A stretch of DNA of 18,198 nt from a virus (lineage: Duplodnaviria; Heunggongvirae; Uroviricota; Caudoviricetes). Shown here in pieces: positions 1 to 7,746 of the stretch. The translations under genes and the position numbers were made by a program. Location: IMG/VR virus record IMGVR_UViG_2740892229_000008, positions 1 to 18,198 of that record; one strand, 5' to 3'. A model generated the notes under the pieces. It worked only from the letters and a program-made list of their open reading frames with translations. It ran no database searches and was not told the origin of the DNA. Positions within the stretch are counted from its first letter, which is position 1. Each line of letters opens with the position of its first letter.

Positions 1-142
1 TAATCGCCTGCATCAGAGTATAAGGGGTTATGGCCACCGGACTACCAAACGGCTGCCAGCCCTCTTTCAGTTTATGTGTCAGCTTTTCCGCAAGATCTGA
101 TGGCGACGCCGCCCTGACAACATCATAGTGTTTAAATGCCAT
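1..142 (-). CDS. DUF1737-family protein, N-terminal fragment (start of a NanS-p-like esterase gene); runs off the window start
   Basis: Own translation of the reverse complement from ATG at 142: MAFKHYDVVRAASPSDLAEKLTHKLKEGWQPFGSPVAITPYTLMQAI, a close paralogue of the N-terminus of the ORF starting at 5112. The track ORF 79..282 is in another frame. Confidence 0.55.
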   Translation of the reverse strand, partial: MAFKHYDVVRAASPSDLAEKLTHKLKEGWQPFGSPVAITPYTLMQAI

Positions 143-401: not shown

Positions 402-737
402 ATGAAGTGGATTGTGATTGATACAGTTATCCAGCCATCATGCGGAATATCTTTTTCAGTCATATGGAGTAAAATAAAATTAATAATCTGGTATCAATCG
501 GATGCTTTCTTACCTCCTGAAAGTATATTTACACTGACTCACACAGGTATCATGCTCAATAACAAAGTGCTACCTGTAACCATTTACAACATAGTACCAT
601 TCAATAAAACATTCTGGAATTTAATCAAAAACAGCCAGGAATGCCCTACAAATACAGATAACGTATTGAATGAATGCTTTAATAACCGTTGCACTCTGCA
701 AATATGTCCTTATGGGCTAAAACAACAAAATCCATAA
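402..737 (+). CDS. hypothetical protein (AT-rich cargo ORF)
   Basis: 111-aa ORF with ATG preceded by AAGGAAAG; AT-rich, no recognisable motif; lies between the tRNA cluster and the DUF1737 gene. Confidence 0.25.
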
Positions 738-756
738 GGAGTTTACTCACATCTGA

Positions 757-793
757 CAAAATCAATATAAACAGCCCCTCCGGAGAGGGGCTG
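757..793 (-). terminator. candidate intrinsic terminator (minus strand)
   Basis: Perfect 9-bp stem CAGCCCCTC/GAGGGGCTG (772-780/785-793) with 4-nt loop; on the minus strand it is followed by TTTATATTGATTTTG. Confidence 0.4.
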
Positions 794-1017
794 GAGAGTG
801 GCGCTATGTGCCATTGCATGGTGCCGGGTGCCTCCCGGTGAATTCAGTACCAGCACCTGAATCCGCGATTATCCCATATACCTACTCGCTGATTGCCCCT
901 CCGCACAGGGGGATTCACCATGCCAGTTTCTTTTAACAAACTCCCCGCAAACCAGACAACAGTCAACCGCCTGAATTGTGAAGTATTTAAAAATTTCTCC
1001 CGCTAACTGATACCCGG

Positions 1018-1104
1018 CTAACAGTCTGGCGTTTTCTTTTTCAGCAACGGGAAAGCAACAACCACCACACCCGCCACCAGCACACCGTCAGCCAGCACTG
1101 ACAT
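1018..1104 (-). CDS. small hydrophobic peptide (about 28 aa), paralogue of the peptide at 5411..5491
   Basis: Own translation MSVLADGVLVAGVVVVAFPLLKKKTPDC; amino-acid pattern is conserved with the 5411..5491 peptide although the DNA has diverged. No clear SD; start uncertain. Confidence 0.3.
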   Translation of the reverse strand: MSVLADGVLVAGVVVVAFPLLKKKTPDC

Positions 1105-1184
1105 TATCCGGCTGCTGCAATGCCATTCACAAAAACAGTAAGCAATCACTTTTTACCGTAACAGGTGATAATCCAGATATGTAT

Positions 1185-1538
1185 CTACCCCAGATGAGTA
1201 ATCCGAAGTTCATCCATACCACAGGTCCTGGCTATTCTGTTGTACTCCTGAACAAGAGCAAATAATTCTGAATTAGCAACCATGAACTCATCGCAAACCC
1301 TCTGTATAGCATCACTATTCAGAATAATAACGTCTCTTCCCGAAAGACGATCAGGAGTACAGAACAAAACTGTCAAACGGCTGAAGGCCTTTGCTCGTGC
1401 TGCATTGACTATATCAATACGCTGCCTAAGGATGAAACACCCCGACGCCTCATCAATATTCACTCTACCCACACCATATGAATGATAAATATTTAATGCT
1501 GAAAAAACCATTAGACCGTATAACAAATATTCAATCAA
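1185..1538 (-). CDS. hypothetical protein (117-aa ORF, doubtful)
   Basis: Track ORF with TTG start and no obvious RBS; overlaps a + strand 67-aa ORF; no motif recognised. Confidence 0.2.
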   Translation of the reverse strand: MIEYLLYGLMVFSALNIYHSYGVGRVNIDEASGCFILRQRIDIVNAARAKAFSRLTVLFCTPDRLSGRDVIILNSDAIQRVCDEFMVANSELFALVQEYNRIARTCGMDELRITHLG

Positions 1539-1648: not shown

Positions 1649-1725
1649 TGGCGCGCTGTACTGGATTCGAACCAGTGACCGATTGCTTAGAAGGCAATTG
1701 CTCTGTCCGGCTGAGCTAACAACGC
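1649..1725 (-). tRNA. tRNA-Arg (anticodon UCU), prophage-encoded
   Basis: Minus strand GCGTTGTTAGCTCAGCCGGACAGAGCAATTGCCTTCTAAGCAATCGGTCACTGGTTCGAATCCAGTACAGCGCGCCA folds by eye as a cloverleaf: 7-bp acceptor, GCTC/GAGC D stem, ATTGC/GCAAT anticodon stem with loop CTTCTAA, TTCGAAT T-loop, CCA end. Confidence 0.85.
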
Positions 1726-1826: not shown

Positions 1827-1902
1827 TGGTGGCCCTTGCTGGATTTGAACCAGCGACCTGGCGATTATGAGTCGCTCGCTCTCACCACTGAGCTAAAGGG
1901 CC
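1827..1902 (-). tRNA. tRNA with CAU anticodon (Met or lysidine-modified Ile2, as ileZ of Stx phages)
   Basis: Minus strand GGCCCTTTAGCTCAGTGGTGAGAGCGAGCGACTCATAATCGCCAGGTCGCTGGTTCAAATCCAGCAAGGGCCACCA; canonical cloverleaf, anticodon loop CTCATAA. Confidence 0.85.
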
Positions 1903-1941: not shown

Positions 1942-1965
1942 AAAAAACCCGCTCAGCGGCGGGTT
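1942..1965 (-). terminator. tR'-like intrinsic terminator downstream of lambda-type Q
   Basis: 6-bp GC stem ACCCGC/GCGGGT (1947-1964), followed on the minus strand by TTTTTTA. Confidence 0.5.
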
Positions 1966-2045: not shown

Positions 2046-2867
2046 TTACCTAGTTACCTTTTTTAACTGCCGCTCAGCCCATGCTTCTTCAATATCAAAC
2101 CGGGTCACCAGCGCATCATAAAATTTCTTAACTGTTTTTTCCCATGACGCGCGTGTTATCTGGTTTGTCACCTCGCATATAGCATTAAATGCCTCCGTTG
2201 ATGGTAGTCTTTCATAGCCACGACCACCACAACGCTGGCAGTCTCTGATAACAGGCATACCACGTTTTACCGACTCTTCACGATGAATGGCGACACCACG
2301 CCCACGGCAATCCTTACAGGCGGTGGAAACCTCACCCTTTCCGCCACACTCCGGACAGGCAACTTTTACCACCTCCCTGACTTTTTTCCATTCTTCCCAG
2401 TAAGACGGATACACACCTTTCGTACACTTTGCCCATACCGGCGGCTTACCATCCGGATACTGGACCTTGTTTGTAAAAACTATGCTTTCAATAAATTTTT
2501 CCCCATAGCAACAAGGGCACTGCTTTTTACTCGCTGCGCTGCGGGCATAATCCTCAAAAGCGTACGAAGCCATAATGCGCATCACTACCGGTTTTATTTC
2601 TGCCGGAAGTTTTCTCAACGCCGCCACACGATCGCACCGACTGAGTGCATAATCTGCCAGTAATTCTGTTGCCCGCGCCCTGTCATTCATACTGATGCCC
2701 ATTTTCCCCAGGAACGCAGAAAAACCCATCTCAGCCCGATTCTGTGTCATGCCCTGCGCGGCCATCACATCAGTGATACTCAGCGCATCTTTTGACGTTG
2801 AGGCCGATGCATCGGTCAGGCCAGGGGATTTTGGGGAGTAGTATTTCGGTAAATCTTCCAGTTTCAT
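2046..2867 (-). CDS. antitermination protein Q, lambda-Q family (273 aa)
   Basis: YSPKSP and TDVMAAQGM near the N-terminus, several CxxC pairs, C-terminal YDALV...KKVTR; resembles lambda Q as I recall it. Sits between rusA and pR'/tR'/tRNAs. Confidence 0.8.
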   Translation of the reverse strand: MKLEDLPKYYSPKSPGLTDASASTSKDALSITDVMAAQGMTQNRAEMGFSAFLGKMGISMNDRARATELLADYALSRCDRVAALRKLPAEIKPVVMRIMASYAFEDYARSAASKKQCPCCYGEKFIESIVFTNKVQYPDGKPPVWAKCTKGVYPSYWEEWKKVREVVKVACPECGGKGEVSTACKDCRGRGVAIHREESVKRGMPVIRDCQRCGGRGYERLPSTEAFNAICEVTNQITRASWEKTVKKFYDALVTRFDIEEAWAERQLKKVTR

Positions 2868-2881
2868 TTTTTGACCTGCTC

Positions 2882-3238
2882 TTAATGCATTATGGGGTAA
2901 ATCTTCACCCCCAGACGTCCACCAGATACTGGCTGACCACGAACGATATTGATTTCATCAAACTGCTCATCGTCCATTAACACTCCCGCATGCGTCAGCG
3001 CATCCAGCGGTGCTTTCAGAATGTTGTCCAGGTCGCGACGACGCTTATCCGGTGGCTCTGCAATCACCTTTATCGCCAGCCTTCCGGACAGGCTTAATTT
3101 CAGCCGCTGCTGGCGAACAATAAGCGCCACAGCCCGGCGATAACGCTTTCCCTCCTCCGAGATAAAATATGTGCTGCCACGGCGTCGCCAGTAAGTGTTC
3201 ACCGTCGGCGGGTAAGGTAAAACCAAATCTATGAGCAT
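2882..3238 (-). CDS. rusA: Holliday-junction resolvase RusA family
   Basis: LPYPPTVNTYWRRRG and PDKRRRDLDNILKAPLDALTHAGVLMDDEQ match the RusA pattern (LPWPPSNNRYYR, PDRRRRDLDN) from memory. Confidence 0.8.
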   Translation of the reverse strand: MLIDLVLPYPPTVNTYWRRRGSTYFISEEGKRYRRAVALIVRQQRLKLSLSGRLAIKVIAEPPDKRRRDLDNILKAPLDALTHAGVLMDDEQFDEINIVRGQPVSGGRLGVKIYPIMH

Positions 3239-3250
3239 CAGTCACCTCTT

Positions 3251-4300
3251 TTACCCAAGCACGCCAGTTGCAAAGGCGTGATCAAGAAAACGAAAAATTA
3301 AATCAACCTGAGAACCATGCTTTTCTTCGAACGCCAGCGGATCCGCATGAAGCTCGTTGTGATGCTCCCGACACAGCGGTAGCGTGAAAATATCGTGAGA
3401 TTTTGTCCCCATTCCGCCCTGACCATGACCAATCAGGTGATGGGGATCGTCGGCTGGCTTACCACAACACGCACACGGCTGTGTCTTCACCCAGCGTGTG
3501 TATTTCTCGTTAACCCAGCGGCGACGTTTAGGTCGTTTCATGAAAGATTCCGGAGGCTCAGGATCAACGGCAATGCTGACCACCGTCTTTTCCTGTGGTG
3601 GGTTCTGTTGCTGGTGGGCGTGAGGCAGCGGCGCAAGATTTTTTGTGCGCTGTTTCAGTATGCTGATGGCGGTCTGCTCTCCCGGTACGATGTCGCTTTC
3701 GCGGTACAAGGGGCGGATTTTTTCCGCACGTAACCCCAGAGAACGACGTAATACTGCCTCCGGAAGCGCGTCCGCCACCTGATTGCAGACCGCCCACCAG
3801 GATAATTCAGCCAGAGATAATTCACGCTCCTGCGTACCGCTTATTGCGTGACCGATGACGTCAATCATCCATGCTGACAGGTTTTGATGAGCAAGTTGCT
3901 CGAGTGATTCGGATGTCTGGTCACGCAGCTGGTTGTCGCAGTGCCAGCACAACACCATTGCGCCGGTACCATAACGGTGAATGACGGTTTCGCTGTGATG
4001 ATAATCGCCGTGTGGCCACTGGCAGGATTTAATATGGCGCAACAGCCAGTCAGACAATGCACCAGCACCACCAGCAGCACGAATCACCCGTGCGTTACTG
4101 AAAAACGGCAGCAATGTTTTGTCTTCCACTAGCGGCTGGTGAACGGCAGGAACAACCCCGGACGGCAGATTACGCATGCTTTTCGGTTCCGGCTCCACCA
4201 GTACCCGGGTATTGTGGAATACCGGCATGGATTCACGGCCCGGCTTAACGATCACCAGCCCGAGTTCCGGTACCAGAACAGGTCGAAGTAATACCCGCAC
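3251..4300 (-). CDS. DUF968-family prophage protein (YdfU-like) with C-terminal HNH-like Cys/His motif
   Basis: 349-aa ORF; C-terminal CACCGKPADDPHHLIGHGQGG...LCREHHNELH; position immediately upstream of rusA and Q as in Qin/DLP12-type prophages. True start may be an internal Met. Confidence 0.65.
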   Translation of the reverse strand: MRVLLRPVLVPELGLVIVKPGRESMPVFHNTRVLVEPEPKSMRNLPSGVVPAVHQPLVEDKTLLPFFSNARVIRAAGGAGALSDWLLRHIKSCQWPHGDYHHSETVIHRYGTGAMVLCWHCDNQLRDQTSESLEQLAHQNLSAWMIDVIGHAISGTQERELSLAELSWWAVCNQVADALPEAVLRRSLGLRAEKIRPLYRESDIVPGEQTAISILKQRTKNLAPLPHAHQQQNPPQEKTVVSIAVDPEPPESFMKRPKRRRWVNEKYTRWVKTQPCACCGKPADDPHHLIGHGQGGMGTKSHDIFTLPLCREHHNELHADPLAFEEKHGSQVDLIFRFLDHAFATGVLG

Positions 4301-4301
4301 G

Positions 4302-4580
4302 TTACCTCCAGATGCGTTGCTGGAATGTGCGGGACGGACGCGGTGGGCGCTCGGAGTAAGGAAGCCTGACGGAGATTATCCAGTGACGATAATCGAGGCT
4401 GAGGGCTTTCTTAATCTCGTATCCGTGTCTGCGGTAGCACTGAATTAGCCACTCGGCCTGTTCTTCAGTGCATGGGGGATGCTGGAACCAGTCAGATTTG
4501 AAAGTGCGGGAACGCCGCCCGTGCCTGCTGGCAAAGACGGCAGAATCATCAGAATTGTGTAATTTGGTATCGTGCGCCAT
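4302..4580 (-). CDS. hypothetical protein (about 92 aa)
   Basis: Track ORF 4302..4709 trimmed to the only Met (ATG at 4580), because the N-terminal extension would run through the terminator hairpin at 4653-4677; weak SD. Confidence 0.35.
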   Translation of the reverse strand: MAHDTKLHNSDDSAVFASRHGRRSRTFKSDWFQHPPCTEEQAEWLIQCYRRHGYEIKKALSLDYRHWIISVRLPYSERPPRPSRTFQQRIWR

Positions 4581-4652
4581 CGGTTGTCTCTGCTGGCGCA
4601 GCAGGTGCCAGTTGTTCAGGCTGGCGTGCGAATTGTAAACCAGAATGCTAGG

Positions 4653-4677
4653 AAAAAACAAAACCCGCCGAAGCGGG
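4653..4677 (-). terminator. intrinsic terminator (minus strand)
   Basis: CCCGC-cgaa-GCGGG hairpin (4664-4677) followed on the minus strand by TTTTGTTTTTT (4663..4653). Confidence 0.55.
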
Positions 4678-4790
4678 TTAAGTGCGGGTGCGTTGAGGAT
4701 GCCTGACACATCAGAGGTGGCGAGGGATTCTCCCCATAAGCGCTAACTTAAGGGTTGAACCATCTGAAGAATGCGACGCCTCGGTGCCTC

Positions 4791-4800
4791 NNNNNNNNNN
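4791..4800. other. assembly gap (10 N); no contig overlap detected
   Basis: Run of N; flanking sequences show no shared overlap, so adjacency is unverified. Confidence 0.95.
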
Positions 4801-5112
4801 AACTGTACTGCGGCGCGCCAGCTGTTTAATGCGCGGATCCGGAGCATCGTATGAATCCGGAAGCGGAAGCCCTTCACCGTAAGCCATGGCATTGGACTGC
4901 CCGGCCAGTACGATGACGTAGTACCAATCCGGCTCAGATGAAGGGCCGACCTGTGGCTCTCCTTCAATAGCCACCGCCTGCATCAGTGTGTACGGCGTAA
5001 TGGCAACCGGTCCGCCGTATGGCTGCCAGCCCTCTTTCAGTTTGTGTGTCAGCTTTTCCGCAAGGTCTGACGGCGACGCCGCCCTGACAACATCGTAATG
5101 TTTAATCGACAT
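4801..5112 (-). CDS. DUF1737 + SGNH (sialate O-acetylesterase, NanS-p-like) protein, 5' portion truncated by the gap
   Basis: MSIKHYDVVRAASPSDLAEKL... (DUF1737-like) followed by DWYYVIVLAGQSNAMAYGEGLPLP, the GQSN block typical of sialate O-acetylesterases; reading frame is lost after the N-run. Confidence 0.7.
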
Positions 5113-5198
5113 CGAATTTCTCCCGTGTAGAGGAACAGAGTTAAAAAGCCGGAAGCGGAATCAAATCACAGGATGACCATCTGCCAGTGGCAGGTCAT

Positions 5199-5225
5199 AA
5201 AAAAAAGGCTGCGCAATGCGCAGCC
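5199..5225 (-). terminator. intrinsic terminator (minus strand) upstream of the DUF1737 esterase gene
   Basis: Perfect 8-bp stem GGCTGCGC/GCGCAGCC with 3-nt loop (5207-5225), followed on the minus strand by eight T (5206..5199). Confidence 0.6.
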
Positions 5226-5410
5226 AGAACTCACAAGGAAAATGATAAAAGGAATAACACTAGTGATGTACGCATGGCGCCTCCCGCTAAGTTCTGCAAT
5301 GATCAAACAGAACTCGCTACGTGCCCTTAAAACTCGATCATTTAGCCCCTCCAAGGAGGATTCACCATGCGGTTGATTTTTTAATAAACAGTAAACAAAA
5401 AAGTCAAGAA

Positions 5411-5491
5411 TTATTCATTCTGTTCTTTCATCATCGGCCACAGCAATACCACAATGCCGCAGACCAGAGCGCCATCAGTCAGTACCAACAT
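5411..5491 (-). CDS. small hydrophobic peptide (about 26 aa), paralogue of 1018..1104
   Basis: Own translation MLVLTDGALVCGIVVLLWPMMKEQNE; pattern L-x-D-G-x-L-V-x-G-x-V-V...P...K shared with the 1018..1104 peptide despite many synonymous-type DNA differences. Start ambiguous (in-frame upstream codons are open). Confidence 0.3.
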   Translation of the reverse strand: MLVLTDGALVCGIVVLLWPMMKEQNE

Positions 5492-5654
5492 TATCCTGCT
5501 GGTGAAATCCATCATCACCATCACTAAAAGCAGGATCACAACAGCAAGCAGACACAGTTTATAAAACAATGTTCAGAAAACGCATTCAGCATGCCTAAGG
5601 TTCTATTCCTACGAATAGCCAACTTGCAACTTAAAATATTATTTATGCAGCCAA

Positions 5655-6413
5655 TTAAATTCTGGTCCTTACAATATCAACCTGAAGATTCTTATCTTGT
5701 GCTGATTGATAAATGACAAACCTTTTACTACCTGCATTGAAAGAAGTAGACAAAACCAGACAATTATCATAACGAGCAAGAACATAATACCAACCATCAT
5801 TATAATTAATCATTTCATATTCTTTCTTAAACTGTGGTTTGTAATATCCTGTCAGAAATGAAAAAAGCCAAAAATATGCCACAAAAGCAATCATCACAAT
5901 CTCAAAAAAATGTTTTTTTATAAATGGCTTATCATAGAAGCATGATACCGATAAAAATCGCCCATAAGATCTTATCGAAATTGTAACCGCCAGCGCAATC
6001 GCTGCTGACAGTAGCAAAAGAGGTACCTGAATCTTCTGTCTCAATATAGAAAACTCAATAATTGCCGGCACAAACAATAATTCCACAGCAAAATAAAGGC
6101 GAAATACATTTAGCTCTTGCATAGAATGTTTTCTTTTCACTGCGAAAAAGAATACAACACCAATACCCCAACCGATAAGAAATATAGCAATGACGATAAC
6201 TGCAAAAAATAAACTTCTGGCAACATCATCAACACCTGCACCTACAATCCACCATGGGAAGCCGTAGTAAAAAGAAGTACCCCATCCATAGAAATAAGCA
6301 CTCCCCCATCCAAGGCATCCCATGTAGGCAATAAAAAGTGAAGAACTCCTGAGCAGCGCACCATCCTTCATAACCACCCCAATACAAGATGATAACATTG
6401 GCTTACAACTCAT
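5655..6413 (-). CDS. polytopic inner-membrane protein of unknown function (cargo downstream of Q82-like/tR')
   Basis: 252-aa ORF, AT-rich; about five hydrophobic helices (e.g. LFFAVIVIAIFLIGWGIGVVFFFAV) plus a 60-aa hydrophilic C-terminal domain; likely start at the Met at 6371, which is preceded by GGGGTGG. Confidence 0.5.
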   Translation of the reverse strand: MSCKPMLSSCIGVVMKDGALLRSSSLFIAYMGCLGWGSAYFYGWGTSFYYGFPWWIVGAGVDDVARSLFFAVIVIAIFLIGWGIGVVFFFAVKRKHSMQELNVFRLYFAVELLFVPAIIEFSILRQKIQVPLLLLSAAIALAVTISIRSYGRFLSVSCFYDKPFIKKHFFEIVMIAFVAYFWLFSFLTGYYKPQFKKEYEMINYNDGWYYVLARYDNCLVLSTSFNAGSKRFVIYQSAQDKNLQVDIVRTRI

Positions 6414-6510
6414 AACAAAAGCAATTCAATGCCGTCAAGAGGTTACAGGCTAAAAAAACTCTATTACATAGCAGCCAGCATGTTTACCGTACAAGTACAA
6501 CTCAGGGCAT

Positions 6511-6536
6511 AAAAAAAACCCACTCGGCAGCGGGTT
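6511..6536 (-). terminator. tR'-like intrinsic terminator
   Basis: Minus strand ACCCGC-tgccga-GTGGGT (6 bp incl. one G-U) followed by TTTTTTTT (6518..6511). Confidence 0.6.
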
Positions 6537-6570
6537 TATACATTTTTTACAACATACCAAATTTGCATGA

Positions 6571-6599
6571 AGTATATGGCTTTTAATCCAGTTTTGCAA
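6571..6599 (-). promoter_or_regulatory. pR'-like sigma70 promoter overlapping the 3' end of the Q82-like gene
   Basis: Minus strand TTGCAA (-35, 6599..6594), 17-nt spacer, TATACT (-10, 6576..6571); predicted transcript reaches the terminator about 50 nt downstream. Confidence 0.5.
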
Positions 6600-7272
6600 T
6601 ATTTTGCTGTAAAAATGCTGCCTTTTGTTTTGAACGTGTTCTCGTCACAAGCAATAAAGCATCACTATCAAGCTGTAGAAAAATGTGCTTCATTGCAACC
6701 CAGCGTTCAGTAAATGTCTCGGACCAGTTTTTTGTTGTCACTCCCACCAATGATGCCAGTGTCTGGTATTCATAGGCCTCACGCCCTGCAAGTTCGCTCT
6801 TCACATCCTGTGCAGCCAGCCAGATTAACGTCTTCAGGCGATCCAGTGTCTTACCTGCAATTTTTCTGTTACTTAACAAATCTTTAAACTCGCTCCATGC
6901 CCATTGCGTTATGGTGACCTGATGCCCCCATCGAACGCTTTCGCTGTAACACCAAAGCAACCATGCTTTCTGATGTTCATCGAGAGACAAAACCGCGCGG
7001 CGCCATGAAGAGGTTGAGAATTCAACCGGGCTGACCAAAGCAATGGATGAACCTTTTGCGTACGACTGCTTACCGGAAGTCGGCGTATTATCCAGCGTAA
7101 TCATCTTGCCAGTTACCACATCCAGAATGCGCGGCTTCTTTCGTTTGTATGTACCAGTATCAAATTGTGCATGCTCCTGCCAGGCTTCGAGCTGGCCTTT
7201 CGTTGCTCCGTTCAAGTCAGCAGTAGCTGCCATAAGTTGCTCACGAACATACTGTAAATATTGGGTATTCAT
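6583..7272 (-). CDS. putative antitermination protein Q, phage-82-like family (assignment from context and recollection)
   Basis: Track ORF 6583..7356 trimmed to the Met at 7272 (MNTQYLQYVREQL...), which is preceded by GAAAGGA. A strong promoter and short terminated transcript immediately downstream fit a Q/pR'/tR' unit. Family assignment not verifiable here. Confidence 0.45.
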   Translation of the reverse strand: MNTQYLQYVREQLMAATADLNGATKGQLEAWQEHAQFDTGTYKRKKPRILDVVTGKMITLDNTPTSGKQSYAKGSSIALVSPVEFSTSSWRRAVLSLDEHQKAWLLWCYSESVRWGHQVTITQWAWSEFKDLLSNRKIAGKTLDRLKTLIWLAAQDVKSELAGREAYEYQTLASLVGVTTKNWSETFTERWVAMKHIFLQLDSDALLLVTRTRSKQKAAFLQQNIAKLD

Positions 7273-7746
7273 GCAGTAAATCCTTTCTATATTTTGGCAT
7301 AATTCTTCAACATTCGGTAATCGTTCAAAACCGAATCGGGGAAACGACATAAGCACAGGAGCCCCCAGCGACAGCGAAGGAGTTCTGATATATAAGACTC
7401 AGACATCATTCATTCCCCGGTTCTCCAATATCTGTTTCACTCATCATCCATAACTACCTGTAATTGCCCCCCTTTTTTTGTAACAGTTCTTATATTGCTA
7501 TATAGAATAGCCATTACTAATGCATTTAAATTTAATAAAATAAAAATTATAAAAAACATAAAACACCACGCAAACACACTTAATAAAAACACCGTTACAT
7601 TAAAAGATAATAAAAACCGCAATAAAAAACGAATAAATCAATTGTCTCACGCAATTATAAAACATCATATTGATTACGCACCTTGTATTACAAACTCATG
7701 TATGTAAAATACGCGCACCATTCAAAAAAAAGGAAGACAATAACAT

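Follow-up and report, generated by a model that had tools for sequence, protein, structure and literature searches.

Two partner-less copies of the phage gene tciB, one of them apparently a broken relic, upstream of STnc100-like sRNAs and sialate esterase genes

Two short reading frames on the minus strand of an 18,198-nucleotide stretch of phage DNA (IMG/VR record IMGVR_UViG_2740892229_000008; hereafter the window) are, judged by homology, copies of the phage gene tciB, a family already catalogued in Pfam, PHROGs, RefSeq and the record of phage 434. We think it probable that both descend from a two-gene tciA-tciB (tciAB) module from which tciA was lost, that the shorter one, copy B, is a pseudogene, that expression of the longer one, copy A, is doubtful, and that such copies persist by linkage. 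The finding is an ordinary one, since the family is known, neither copy has its partner and one of them is visibly broken; what the window holds is one broken relic and one partner-less copy. An earlier note on this DNA had singled out the same pair as tiny hydrophobic peptides but overlooked both the decay of copy B and the fact that the two copies stand without tciA, their usual partner.

Copy A (5411..5569) encodes 52 amino acids from a TTG start (MFYKLCLLAVVILLLVMVMMDFTSRIMLVLTDGALVCGIVVLLWPMMKEQNE) and copy B (1018..1149) encodes 43 from a GTG start (MIAYCFCEWHCSSRIMSVLADGVLVAGVVVVAFPLLKKKTPDC). The intervals in which the earlier note placed its peptides, 5411..5491 and 1018..1104, do fall on these ORFs but take in only their C-terminal halves. 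That the two peptides are diverged homologues is borne out by a common Pfam model (PF13064) and by a core of 25 codons, SRIM...K, in which 8 codons are identical, 7 differ synonymously only and 10 differ non-synonymously. Values of dN/dS for whole ORFs, window copies against relatives, are confounded by mosaic N- and C-termini and were therefore recomputed on the common core; between copies A and B it gives pS = 0.59, pN = 0.26 and a dN/dS of ~0.28, with 8, 5 and 13 differences at first, second and third codon positions respectively, an excess at third positions. The ungapped BLOSUM62 score of the core, 78, was reached by none of 20,000 composition-preserving shuffles. Together with the motif conservation described below, the dN/dS of the core upholds the argument that selection on the peptide, rather than chance, lies behind the resemblance, as a statement about past selection. 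The regions around the copies, described at first as unrelated-looking, are instead homologous modules of tciB, sRNA and esterase. Gaps of 10 Ns at positions 4791, 8921, 10134, 15270 and 17541 make the window a scaffold with copies A and B on different contigs, and for this reason the whole window, when sought in complete Escherichia coli genomes, is contiguous in none of them; taken singly, the copy A region occurs in 678 and the copy B region in 870 of 5,426 such genomes, in which places of the copy A type number ~3,800 and those of the copy B type ~8,100.

Membership in the family is clear for both copies. In a Pfam scan (cut-off 25) PF13064 (DUF3927) scores 53.0 bits on copy A (E = 3.4e-14) and 95.6 bits on copy B (E = 1.7e-27), and it scores 106 bits on TciB of phage P1. 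Copy A covers profile positions 7-49 and has two hydropathy maxima. Against PHROG 1470, 'TciB-like', the E-values are 2.5e-17 for copy A and 7.8e-13 for copy B, the match of the latter being limited to residues 12-40. The family is small, with 78 representatives at 50% identity among 1.84 billion proteins and the consensus M..K.RL-(hydrophobic)-VDFTSRIMSVLADG-(hydrophobic)-WP..K, and the motif VDFTSRxMSxxADG is kept among these representatives. TciB itself is a helical membrane protein of about 52-55 residues, with VDFTSR(I/L)MSVLADG as its conserved central motif. A full-length member is expected to have about 50-55 residues, arranged as an N-terminal K/R, a first hydrophobic segment, VDFTSRxMSxxADG, a second hydrophobic segment and the basic tail WP..K; this architecture is complete in copy A, and copy B lacks segment 1 and VDFT. 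Nor are the genes too small for standard gene callers, as had been supposed: PGAP annotates both loci, labelled 'DUF3927 family protein' in RefSeq (WP_000499454.1 for copy A and WP_000562553.1 for copy B), and the phage 434 record names copy A TciB, the two proteins being 98% identical with the reading of the start codon as their sole difference.

The name TciB derives from the phage P1 genes tciA-tciB-tciC, and the full label of PHROG 1470 reads 'TciB-like inhibition of cell division or resistance to colicin'. The family owes this name to annotation by association with the TerB-like TciA. A literature search found no experiment on TciB function; papers that mention DUF3927 hold no functional data on it, and others repeat the annotation. 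In a CRISPRi screen of P1, tciA, tciB and tciC were non-essential and knock-down of tciB gave no plaque phenotype (PMC10695390).

The usual setting of tciB is as the second gene of a pair. In ten intact contexts it overlaps or abuts tciA, a gene for a TerB-like cytoplasmic protein of ~142 residues directly upstream: the metagenomic and genomic loci that we label L007, L008, L011, L012 and L014, and phages TR2, LMessi, Klebsiella 5 LV-2017, Evi and P1. The exception is L013, a distant lambdoid context with a lone DUF3927 gene between Q and a holin. At the junction (CTGGAGAATCACCTGTGACGGTAAAA) the tciA stop codon TGA overlaps the tciB start codon GTG (cTGTGAcg), and GGAG lies 8 nt upstream of this canonical GTG, so translation of tciB appears to be coupled to that of tciA. 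TciA itself matches PF05099, with a faint match to DUF533, and aligns along almost its entire length with the solved TerB structure 2JXU (E = 4.4e-8). The pair is commonly preceded by tRNA genes; in P1 it lies between tRNA genes in the C1-repressed ban operon, in lambdoid phages its site is between Q, which tRNA genes often accompany, and the lysis genes, and TR2 is a lytic N4-like Salmonella phage. The tciAB pair is a phage cargo ('moron') operon carried in lytic-growth transcripts, with tciB as its second gene. The window copies likewise have Q, tR'-like terminators and tRNAs upstream and an esterase gene downstream, followed in identical loci by the holin. Among tciA-linked modules dN/dS is 0.01-0.15 for tciA at pS of 0.2-0.75 and 0.18-0.5 for tciB in the same pairs, some mis-registered tciA pairs (pN ~0.5) having been left out; the moderate constraint on tciB argues that TciB is a real protein in intact modules.

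What such a protein might do can be proposed from its predicted shape and its gene order. AlphaFold2, run on a 25-sequence alignment, models TciB as all-helical (pLDDT 92.7), a single continuous helix over residues 2-51 with no hairpin, and the hydropathy maxima at about 5-20 and 33-47 flank a less hydrophobic centre. On a helical wheel the conserved residues D21, S24, R25, S28 and D32 are confined to an arc of 100 degrees and form a polar stripe which may be a contact or ion-binding face. A PDB search with the TciB profile found no solved relative, only a noise hit to BioY, and the PADLOC defence models match neither TciB nor TciA. From gene adjacency and coupling alone, TciB would be the membrane partner or anchor of the TerB-like TciA, and the pair may act on the cell envelope during lytic growth.

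Copy B has lost most of what defines such a module. It keeps only the C-terminal half of tciB, SRIM...K with the basic tail, and its N-terminal 12 residues are out-of-frame filler. Between the start of copy B and the end of STnc100, DNA identity to L014, an intact relative, is 89%. Alignment to L014 also reveals deletions of 14 nt and 5 nt (19 nt) in the part coding for the first hydrophobic segment (TM1), which strip copy B of most of that segment. Pfam finds no TerB-like ORF upstream; what remains there is a stretch of 27 nt at 1151..1177 (minus strand), a blastn match to the L014/Evi junction that represents a relic of the 3' end of tciA and of the ancestral tciB start. At 1160..1162 the ancestral GTG has become GTT, the ancestral frame in this region stops after 11 codons (VTVKSDCLLFL*), and the 43-residue ORF begins at a GTG that by chance shares the reading frame of the C-terminal half. 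With its start codon destroyed, 19 nt missing and TM1 lost, copy B reads as a pseudogene remnant of the tciAB module. An antiterminator Q gene of the PF03589 type lies upstream of it (2046..2867, minus strand), and after this Q come a terminator (1946..1965) and two tRNA genes (1830..1902 and 1652..1725). As a separate matter, the interval 3251..4709 holds DUF968/NinG-like and RusA genes of a nin region according to Pfam, which rules out its interpretation as the C-terminus of an esterase.

Copy A is full-length, and the damage lies at its 5' end. It starts with TTG, has no Shine-Dalgarno sequence and has lost the GGAG; its expression is doubtful since a TTG start stands there without a ribosome-binding site. 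Its DNA can be aligned with canonical tciB from a point about 8 nt past the TTG onwards. Its first hydrophobic segment, though a homologue of the canonical one, differs from it at 11 of 18 residues, all of the changes being hydrophobic-to-hydrophobic or conservative except one from R to C. Neither a TerB-like ORF (by Pfam) nor any DNA remnant of tciA was found upstream; the place that tciA holds in intact modules is occupied by a gene at 5655..6413 (minus strand) for a multi-pass membrane protein of 252 residues with no assigned family, called 'putative membrane protein' in phage 434 and giving no Pfam and no PADLOC hit. The whole contig 4801..8920 corresponds to the late-regulatory region of phage 434, with LpxR, a Q82-like Q, tR', the 252-residue membrane protein, TciB, the sRNA and the SASA esterase. 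This Q (6583..7356, minus strand; PF06323, E = 1.7e-91, and the phage 434 annotation), accompanied by a tR'-like terminator at 6516..6537, defines the late operon to which copy A belongs. Copy A is found in phages 434 and 2B8, both of them viable.

The GC-rich hairpins and terminators seen earlier downstream of both copies are real; those behind copy B belong to a known sRNA family, STnc100/PasD, and those behind copy A probably do. Rfam model RF02076 scores 132.4 bits (E = 2e-29) on 763..952, downstream of copy B, and 41.4 bits (E = 4e-6) on 5196..5400, downstream of copy A, both on the minus strand; the gathering score being 47, the first lies above it and the second below, and both have intrinsic terminators, at 772..793 and 5207..5225 respectively. 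Compensatory changes in the sRNA affect 12 of 23 pairs across 8 copies. PasD and STnc100 are related Hfq-binding prophage sRNAs that adjoin a sialate esterase gene and have Q and LpxR nearby (Zhu, Shabalina and Storz, bioRxiv 10.64898/2026.05.13.724894), and the surroundings of copy A match this published setting in esterase, Q and LpxR. The element at 5196..5400 is assigned to the PasD branch by synteny alone, since Q and LpxR are its neighbours as they are of PasD. In Stx2 phages the distance from stx2B to STnc100, which follows it, is 75 nt (PMC12370729). A TTGACT/TATTAA pair, read from the sequence between the stop codon of copy A and the sRNA, suggests that the sRNA may have a promoter of its own.

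Both copies are also, as the earlier note had it, upstream of a DUF1737/SASA esterase gene, the starts being at 5112 and about 142 on the minus strand. The first of these genes is the 5' part of a nanS-p-type SASA/DUF1737 sialate esterase at 4801..5112 (minus strand; ORF MSIKHYDVVRAASPSDL...), cut by the scaffold gap 4791..4800, and PGAP calls it 'SASA family carbohydrate esterase' in loci identical to that of copy A. The second, at 1..142 (minus strand; MAFKHYDVVRAASPSDL...), is a gene start that runs off the end of the window, identified from the PGAP annotation of an identical locus.

The wider distribution of orphan copies was followed from the flanking DNA. A scan of genome contigs had given 3 loci, too few for use, and a protein-alignment scan of viral contigs 80 loci with identical protein, unfit for selection tests; the selection and context scans were therefore anchored on flanking DNA instead of protein. 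Scanning viral contigs for the sRNA core GCATGGTGAATCCYCCT, which avoids a choice based on the peptide, yielded 120 loci with 133 sites. A tciB-like segment lies upstream at 60 of the 133, with 33-41 or 94 nt between the tciB stop and the sRNA core save in a few truncated alleles. Intact tciA is present at 27 of the 60 and absent at the other 33, the orphans; the converse, tciA without tciB, was seen at none of the 133 sites. Every one of the 27 tciA-linked alleles has the canonical start GTG-TVKLRLA, and every one of the 33 orphans has an altered 5' end, the orphans comprising 12 alleles of the 434 type, 14 of the copy B type and 7 of a 38-residue form truncated at both ends. Visible truncations or frameshifts affect 21/33 orphans and 4/27 linked alleles (Fisher p = 1.8e-4, indicative only, as the copies are redundant and partly clonal). 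At 68 of the 128 evaluable sites there is no tciB upstream of the sRNA at all, and the sites without it carry an N6 methyltransferase, Stx2A/B or another copy of the sRNA instead, which makes the position upstream of the sRNA a general cargo slot. For the 434-type allele the flank-anchored sample holds two segregating sites in the ORF, one synonymous and one non-synonymous, and with site densities of 0.013 for the ORF, 0.015 for the sRNA and 0.024 for the upstream spacer, diversity is too low to judge selection, the flanks being as invariant as the ORF; the 434-type orphan is a recently spread haplotype.

Recombination has probably removed tciA from both window copies. Since the distance from the tciB stop to the sRNA is fixed, the orphans probably persist mainly through physical linkage to the STnc100/PasD sRNA-esterase unit as this spreads among E. 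coli prophages. An alternative is that orphan TciB (copy A, possibly also a product consisting of the second hydrophobic segment, TM2, from both copies) works as a small membrane protein independent of TciA; such a protein, translated from the late transcript that depends on Q, might for example influence membrane potential, the timing of lysis or the exclusion of superinfecting phages. The 52-codon frame of copy A is intact and homologous throughout, the phages that carry it (434 and 2B8) are functional, the gene lies a short way before the lysis region, the lone DUF3927 gene of L013 shows a comparable arrangement, both window copies keep TM2, D32 and the basic tail, and an in-frame internal ATG at RIM is preceded by AGGA or GGAT. 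That ATG is spaced merely 2-3 nt from these motifs, however, and the TTG of copy A has no Shine-Dalgarno sequence; the 5' end of every sampled orphan is damaged or replaced and most of the orphans are truncated, the ORF is no more conserved than the non-coding flanks, and no defence system matches. We regard independent function as unlikely. The specific proposal that the 434-type tciB was kept after the loss of tciA as an autonomous late mini-membrane protein, or as a shared TM2-only form of 26-28 residues, seems to us quite improbable; such retention, if true, would explain why about 12% of complete E. coli genomes, and the viable phage 434, contain it.

The near-constant spacing that we attribute to linkage could also be expected if the ORF were a leader peptide or upstream ORF that controls the STnc100/PasD terminator, sRNA output and read-through into the esterase gene, and the layout of the sRNA, whose multi-stem junction leads into a terminator immediately before the esterase gene, would suit such control. 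Yet each element widely occurs without the other. More than half of the evaluable sRNA sites do without tciB, as given above, and L007, L008, L013, TR2, LMessi and the Klebsiella phage have tciB but neither STnc100 nor an esterase; in P1 an STnc100-like element lies upstream of tciA and not downstream of tciB, and the TTGACT/TATTAA pair speaks for separate transcription of the sRNA. Control of this kind is therefore very unlikely.

The earlier note had likened the peptides to type I toxins or small membrane regulators, and a small hydrophobic peptide with a charged tail, encoded in a prophage of a type that bears Hok/Sok loci elsewhere, does invite the idea of a toxin repressed by an antisense sRNA. 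The adjacent sRNA, however, is co-oriented with the ORF, lies downstream and does not overlap it, and the intact relatives are translationally coupled second genes of operons, found also in lytic N4-like phages; the P1 knock-down without phenotype points the same way. A consensus scan of the opposite (plus) strand, which a weak promoter could escape, found no promoter-like site over 5411..5569 or 1018..1149, a negative outcome for the antisense promoter whose search had been recommended, and promoter counts show no excess over shuffles. Rfam finds no antitoxin RNA family at either locus, and a Pfam scan taken to E-values of 1 finds no Hok/Gef, Ldr, TisB, Ibs or ShoB toxin, returning DUF3927 and, for copy A only, a 10-bit noise match to Herpes_LMP1. 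We consider a type I toxin-antitoxin locus scarcely credible here. That A and B are chance open frames in AT/GT-rich intergenic DNA, alike through composition alone, might be argued from the want of a convincing ribosome-binding site in either copy and from the meaningless N-terminal filler of copy B, but is refuted by how well both fit the family HMM (E = 3e-14 and 2e-27) and by the shuffle test, along with the third-position excess and the clear DNA homology of both ORFs to intact tciB genes.

Three points of wider bearing follow from the reading of the copies as decayed or partner-less remains of tciAB. The label 'DUF3927 family protein' is given by annotation pipelines even to decayed relics truncated at the 5' end, WP_000562553.1 among them, despite the loss of the ancestral start and of half the protein. 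The coupling of TciA and TciB is tight and wide, extending over P1, N4-like and lambdoid phages, and so defines a clear two-gene module of lytic growth. Finally, tciAB, Shiga toxin 2 and a DNA methylase alternate in the slot that separates Q from the STnc100/esterase unit, which bears on how the late regions of Stx phages are assembled.

Several known systems resemble the window copies in part. With type I toxins (Hok/Gef, Ldr, TisB, Ibs, ShoB, ZorO) they share a small, hydrophobic, helical form, a charged end and carriage by prophages, but TciB has no antisense RNA, no separate promoter or leader and no match to those families, and is coupled to tciA. Class II holins, pinholins and antiholins are likewise short helical membrane proteins encoded late, between Q and the endolysin gene; in homologous modules, however, the genuine holins are separate and lie downstream, and Pfam gives no holin family match for copies A and B. 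The likeness to STnc100/PasD concerns the hairpins downstream and the adjacency to the esterase, and not the peptide. In membrane-associated TerB systems, TerB occurs with the membrane protein TerC in ter operons, and TerB-like domains are tethered to the membrane in YebE/DUF533 and DjlA; the tciAB module resembles these in joining a TerB-fold protein, TciA, to a membrane component, although TciB, at ~52 residues, does not detectably resemble TerC or the transmembrane parts of YebE and DjlA, the pairing is read from gene order alone and the window copies have no TerB partner. In P1 and most relatives tciA lies directly upstream with overlapping stop and start codons, whereas the window copies are without tciA and copy B is without its N-terminal half. 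To TciB of P1 and 434, even so, both copies are tied by their HMM matches and by their place in a phage lytic-cycle transcript near tRNA genes, and copy A also by its size, its two hydrophobic segments and its VDFTSR...ADG core.

The position immediately upstream of STnc100/PasD, the sRNA family found ahead of the SASA/DUF1737 esterase genes, is a hot-spot for cargo. We surveyed this slot in the viral contigs L109-L228, taking the region upstream of the sRNA core GCATGGTGAATCCYCCT, and found it occupied by tciAB or by tciB relics at 60 sites, and at others by an N6 DNA methyltransferase, Stx2A/B or a second copy of the sRNA.

Neither copy of tciB in the window retains tciA, the TerB-like gene that lies directly 5' of tciB in intact modules, and a different ORF stands upstream of each. 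Ahead of copy A, the orphan allele shared with phage 434, is a gene for a predicted multi-pass membrane protein of 252 aa (5655-6413, minus strand), which in 434-type modules sits between tR', the terminator after the antiterminator Q, and tciB, the position of tciA elsewhere; searches of Pfam and PADLOC with this protein gave no match. Upstream of copy B, the tciB remnant, the space of the lost tciA is taken up by an ORF of 117 aa (1185-1538, minus strand) that is unannotated by PGAP and was without a match in a family search. An IraM-like anti-adapter gene in the opposite orientation (402-737, plus strand) occupies the interval from STnc100 to the esterase start. At 5166-5354 on the minus strand, an ORF of 62 aa, recorded in phage 434 as a "putative membrane protein", falls wholly within the PasD-like sRNA and its terminator. 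The PGAP annotation of this stretch has a pseudogene on the other strand instead; both are probably spurious calls over an RNA gene.

The compared locus L105 carries a tciB whose 3' end and flank are of the 434 type, and it is a mosaic, intermediate between the intact tciAB module and the orphan allele. A TerB fragment of 48 aa (3858-4004) still overlaps the start of this otherwise canonical tciB. Within the tciB ORF of Escherichia albertii NBRC 107761, at 3086-3127 of that locus, a heptanucleotide is perfectly repeated, (GGCTGGA) x6. This repeat could be a slipped-strand on/off site, since the reading frame would shift whenever one unit was added or dropped, or simply an unstable relic; protein variants in the database differ by whole LEAGGWR units, each equal to three repeat units (21 nt).

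The window itself is a scaffold of short contigs, with five runs of exactly 10 N (4791-4800, 8921-8930, 10134-10143, 15270-15279 and 17541-17550), so that adjacency across these runs is unreliable, as is the short distance that seems to separate the two tciB copies. A search of complete E. coli genomes found the contiguous window in none of them.

Compensatory changes are seen in the closing helix of the STnc100 element (GCAUGGUG/CACCAUGC versus UUGCGGUG/CACCGCAA); in an alignment of eight sequences they occur in 12 of 23 pairs. Region 4261-5013 of the intact tciAB relative L014 holds three tandem STnc100 copies, scoring 139.7, 30.4 and 135 bits; after them, the other strand carries a match to an AsxR/AgvB-type sRNA (63 and 43 bits). 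Phage P1 (NC_005856.1) gives a weak match to the STnc100 core at 1481-1600 (33.4 bits, model positions 31-147), and there the STnc100-like element lies upstream of tciA, whereas in E. coli lambdoid prophages it lies downstream of tciB. The STnc100 family may be more than a trans-acting sRNA alone, because its layout, in which a multi-stem junction and then a terminator immediately precede an ORF, is one that cis-regulatory leaders share.
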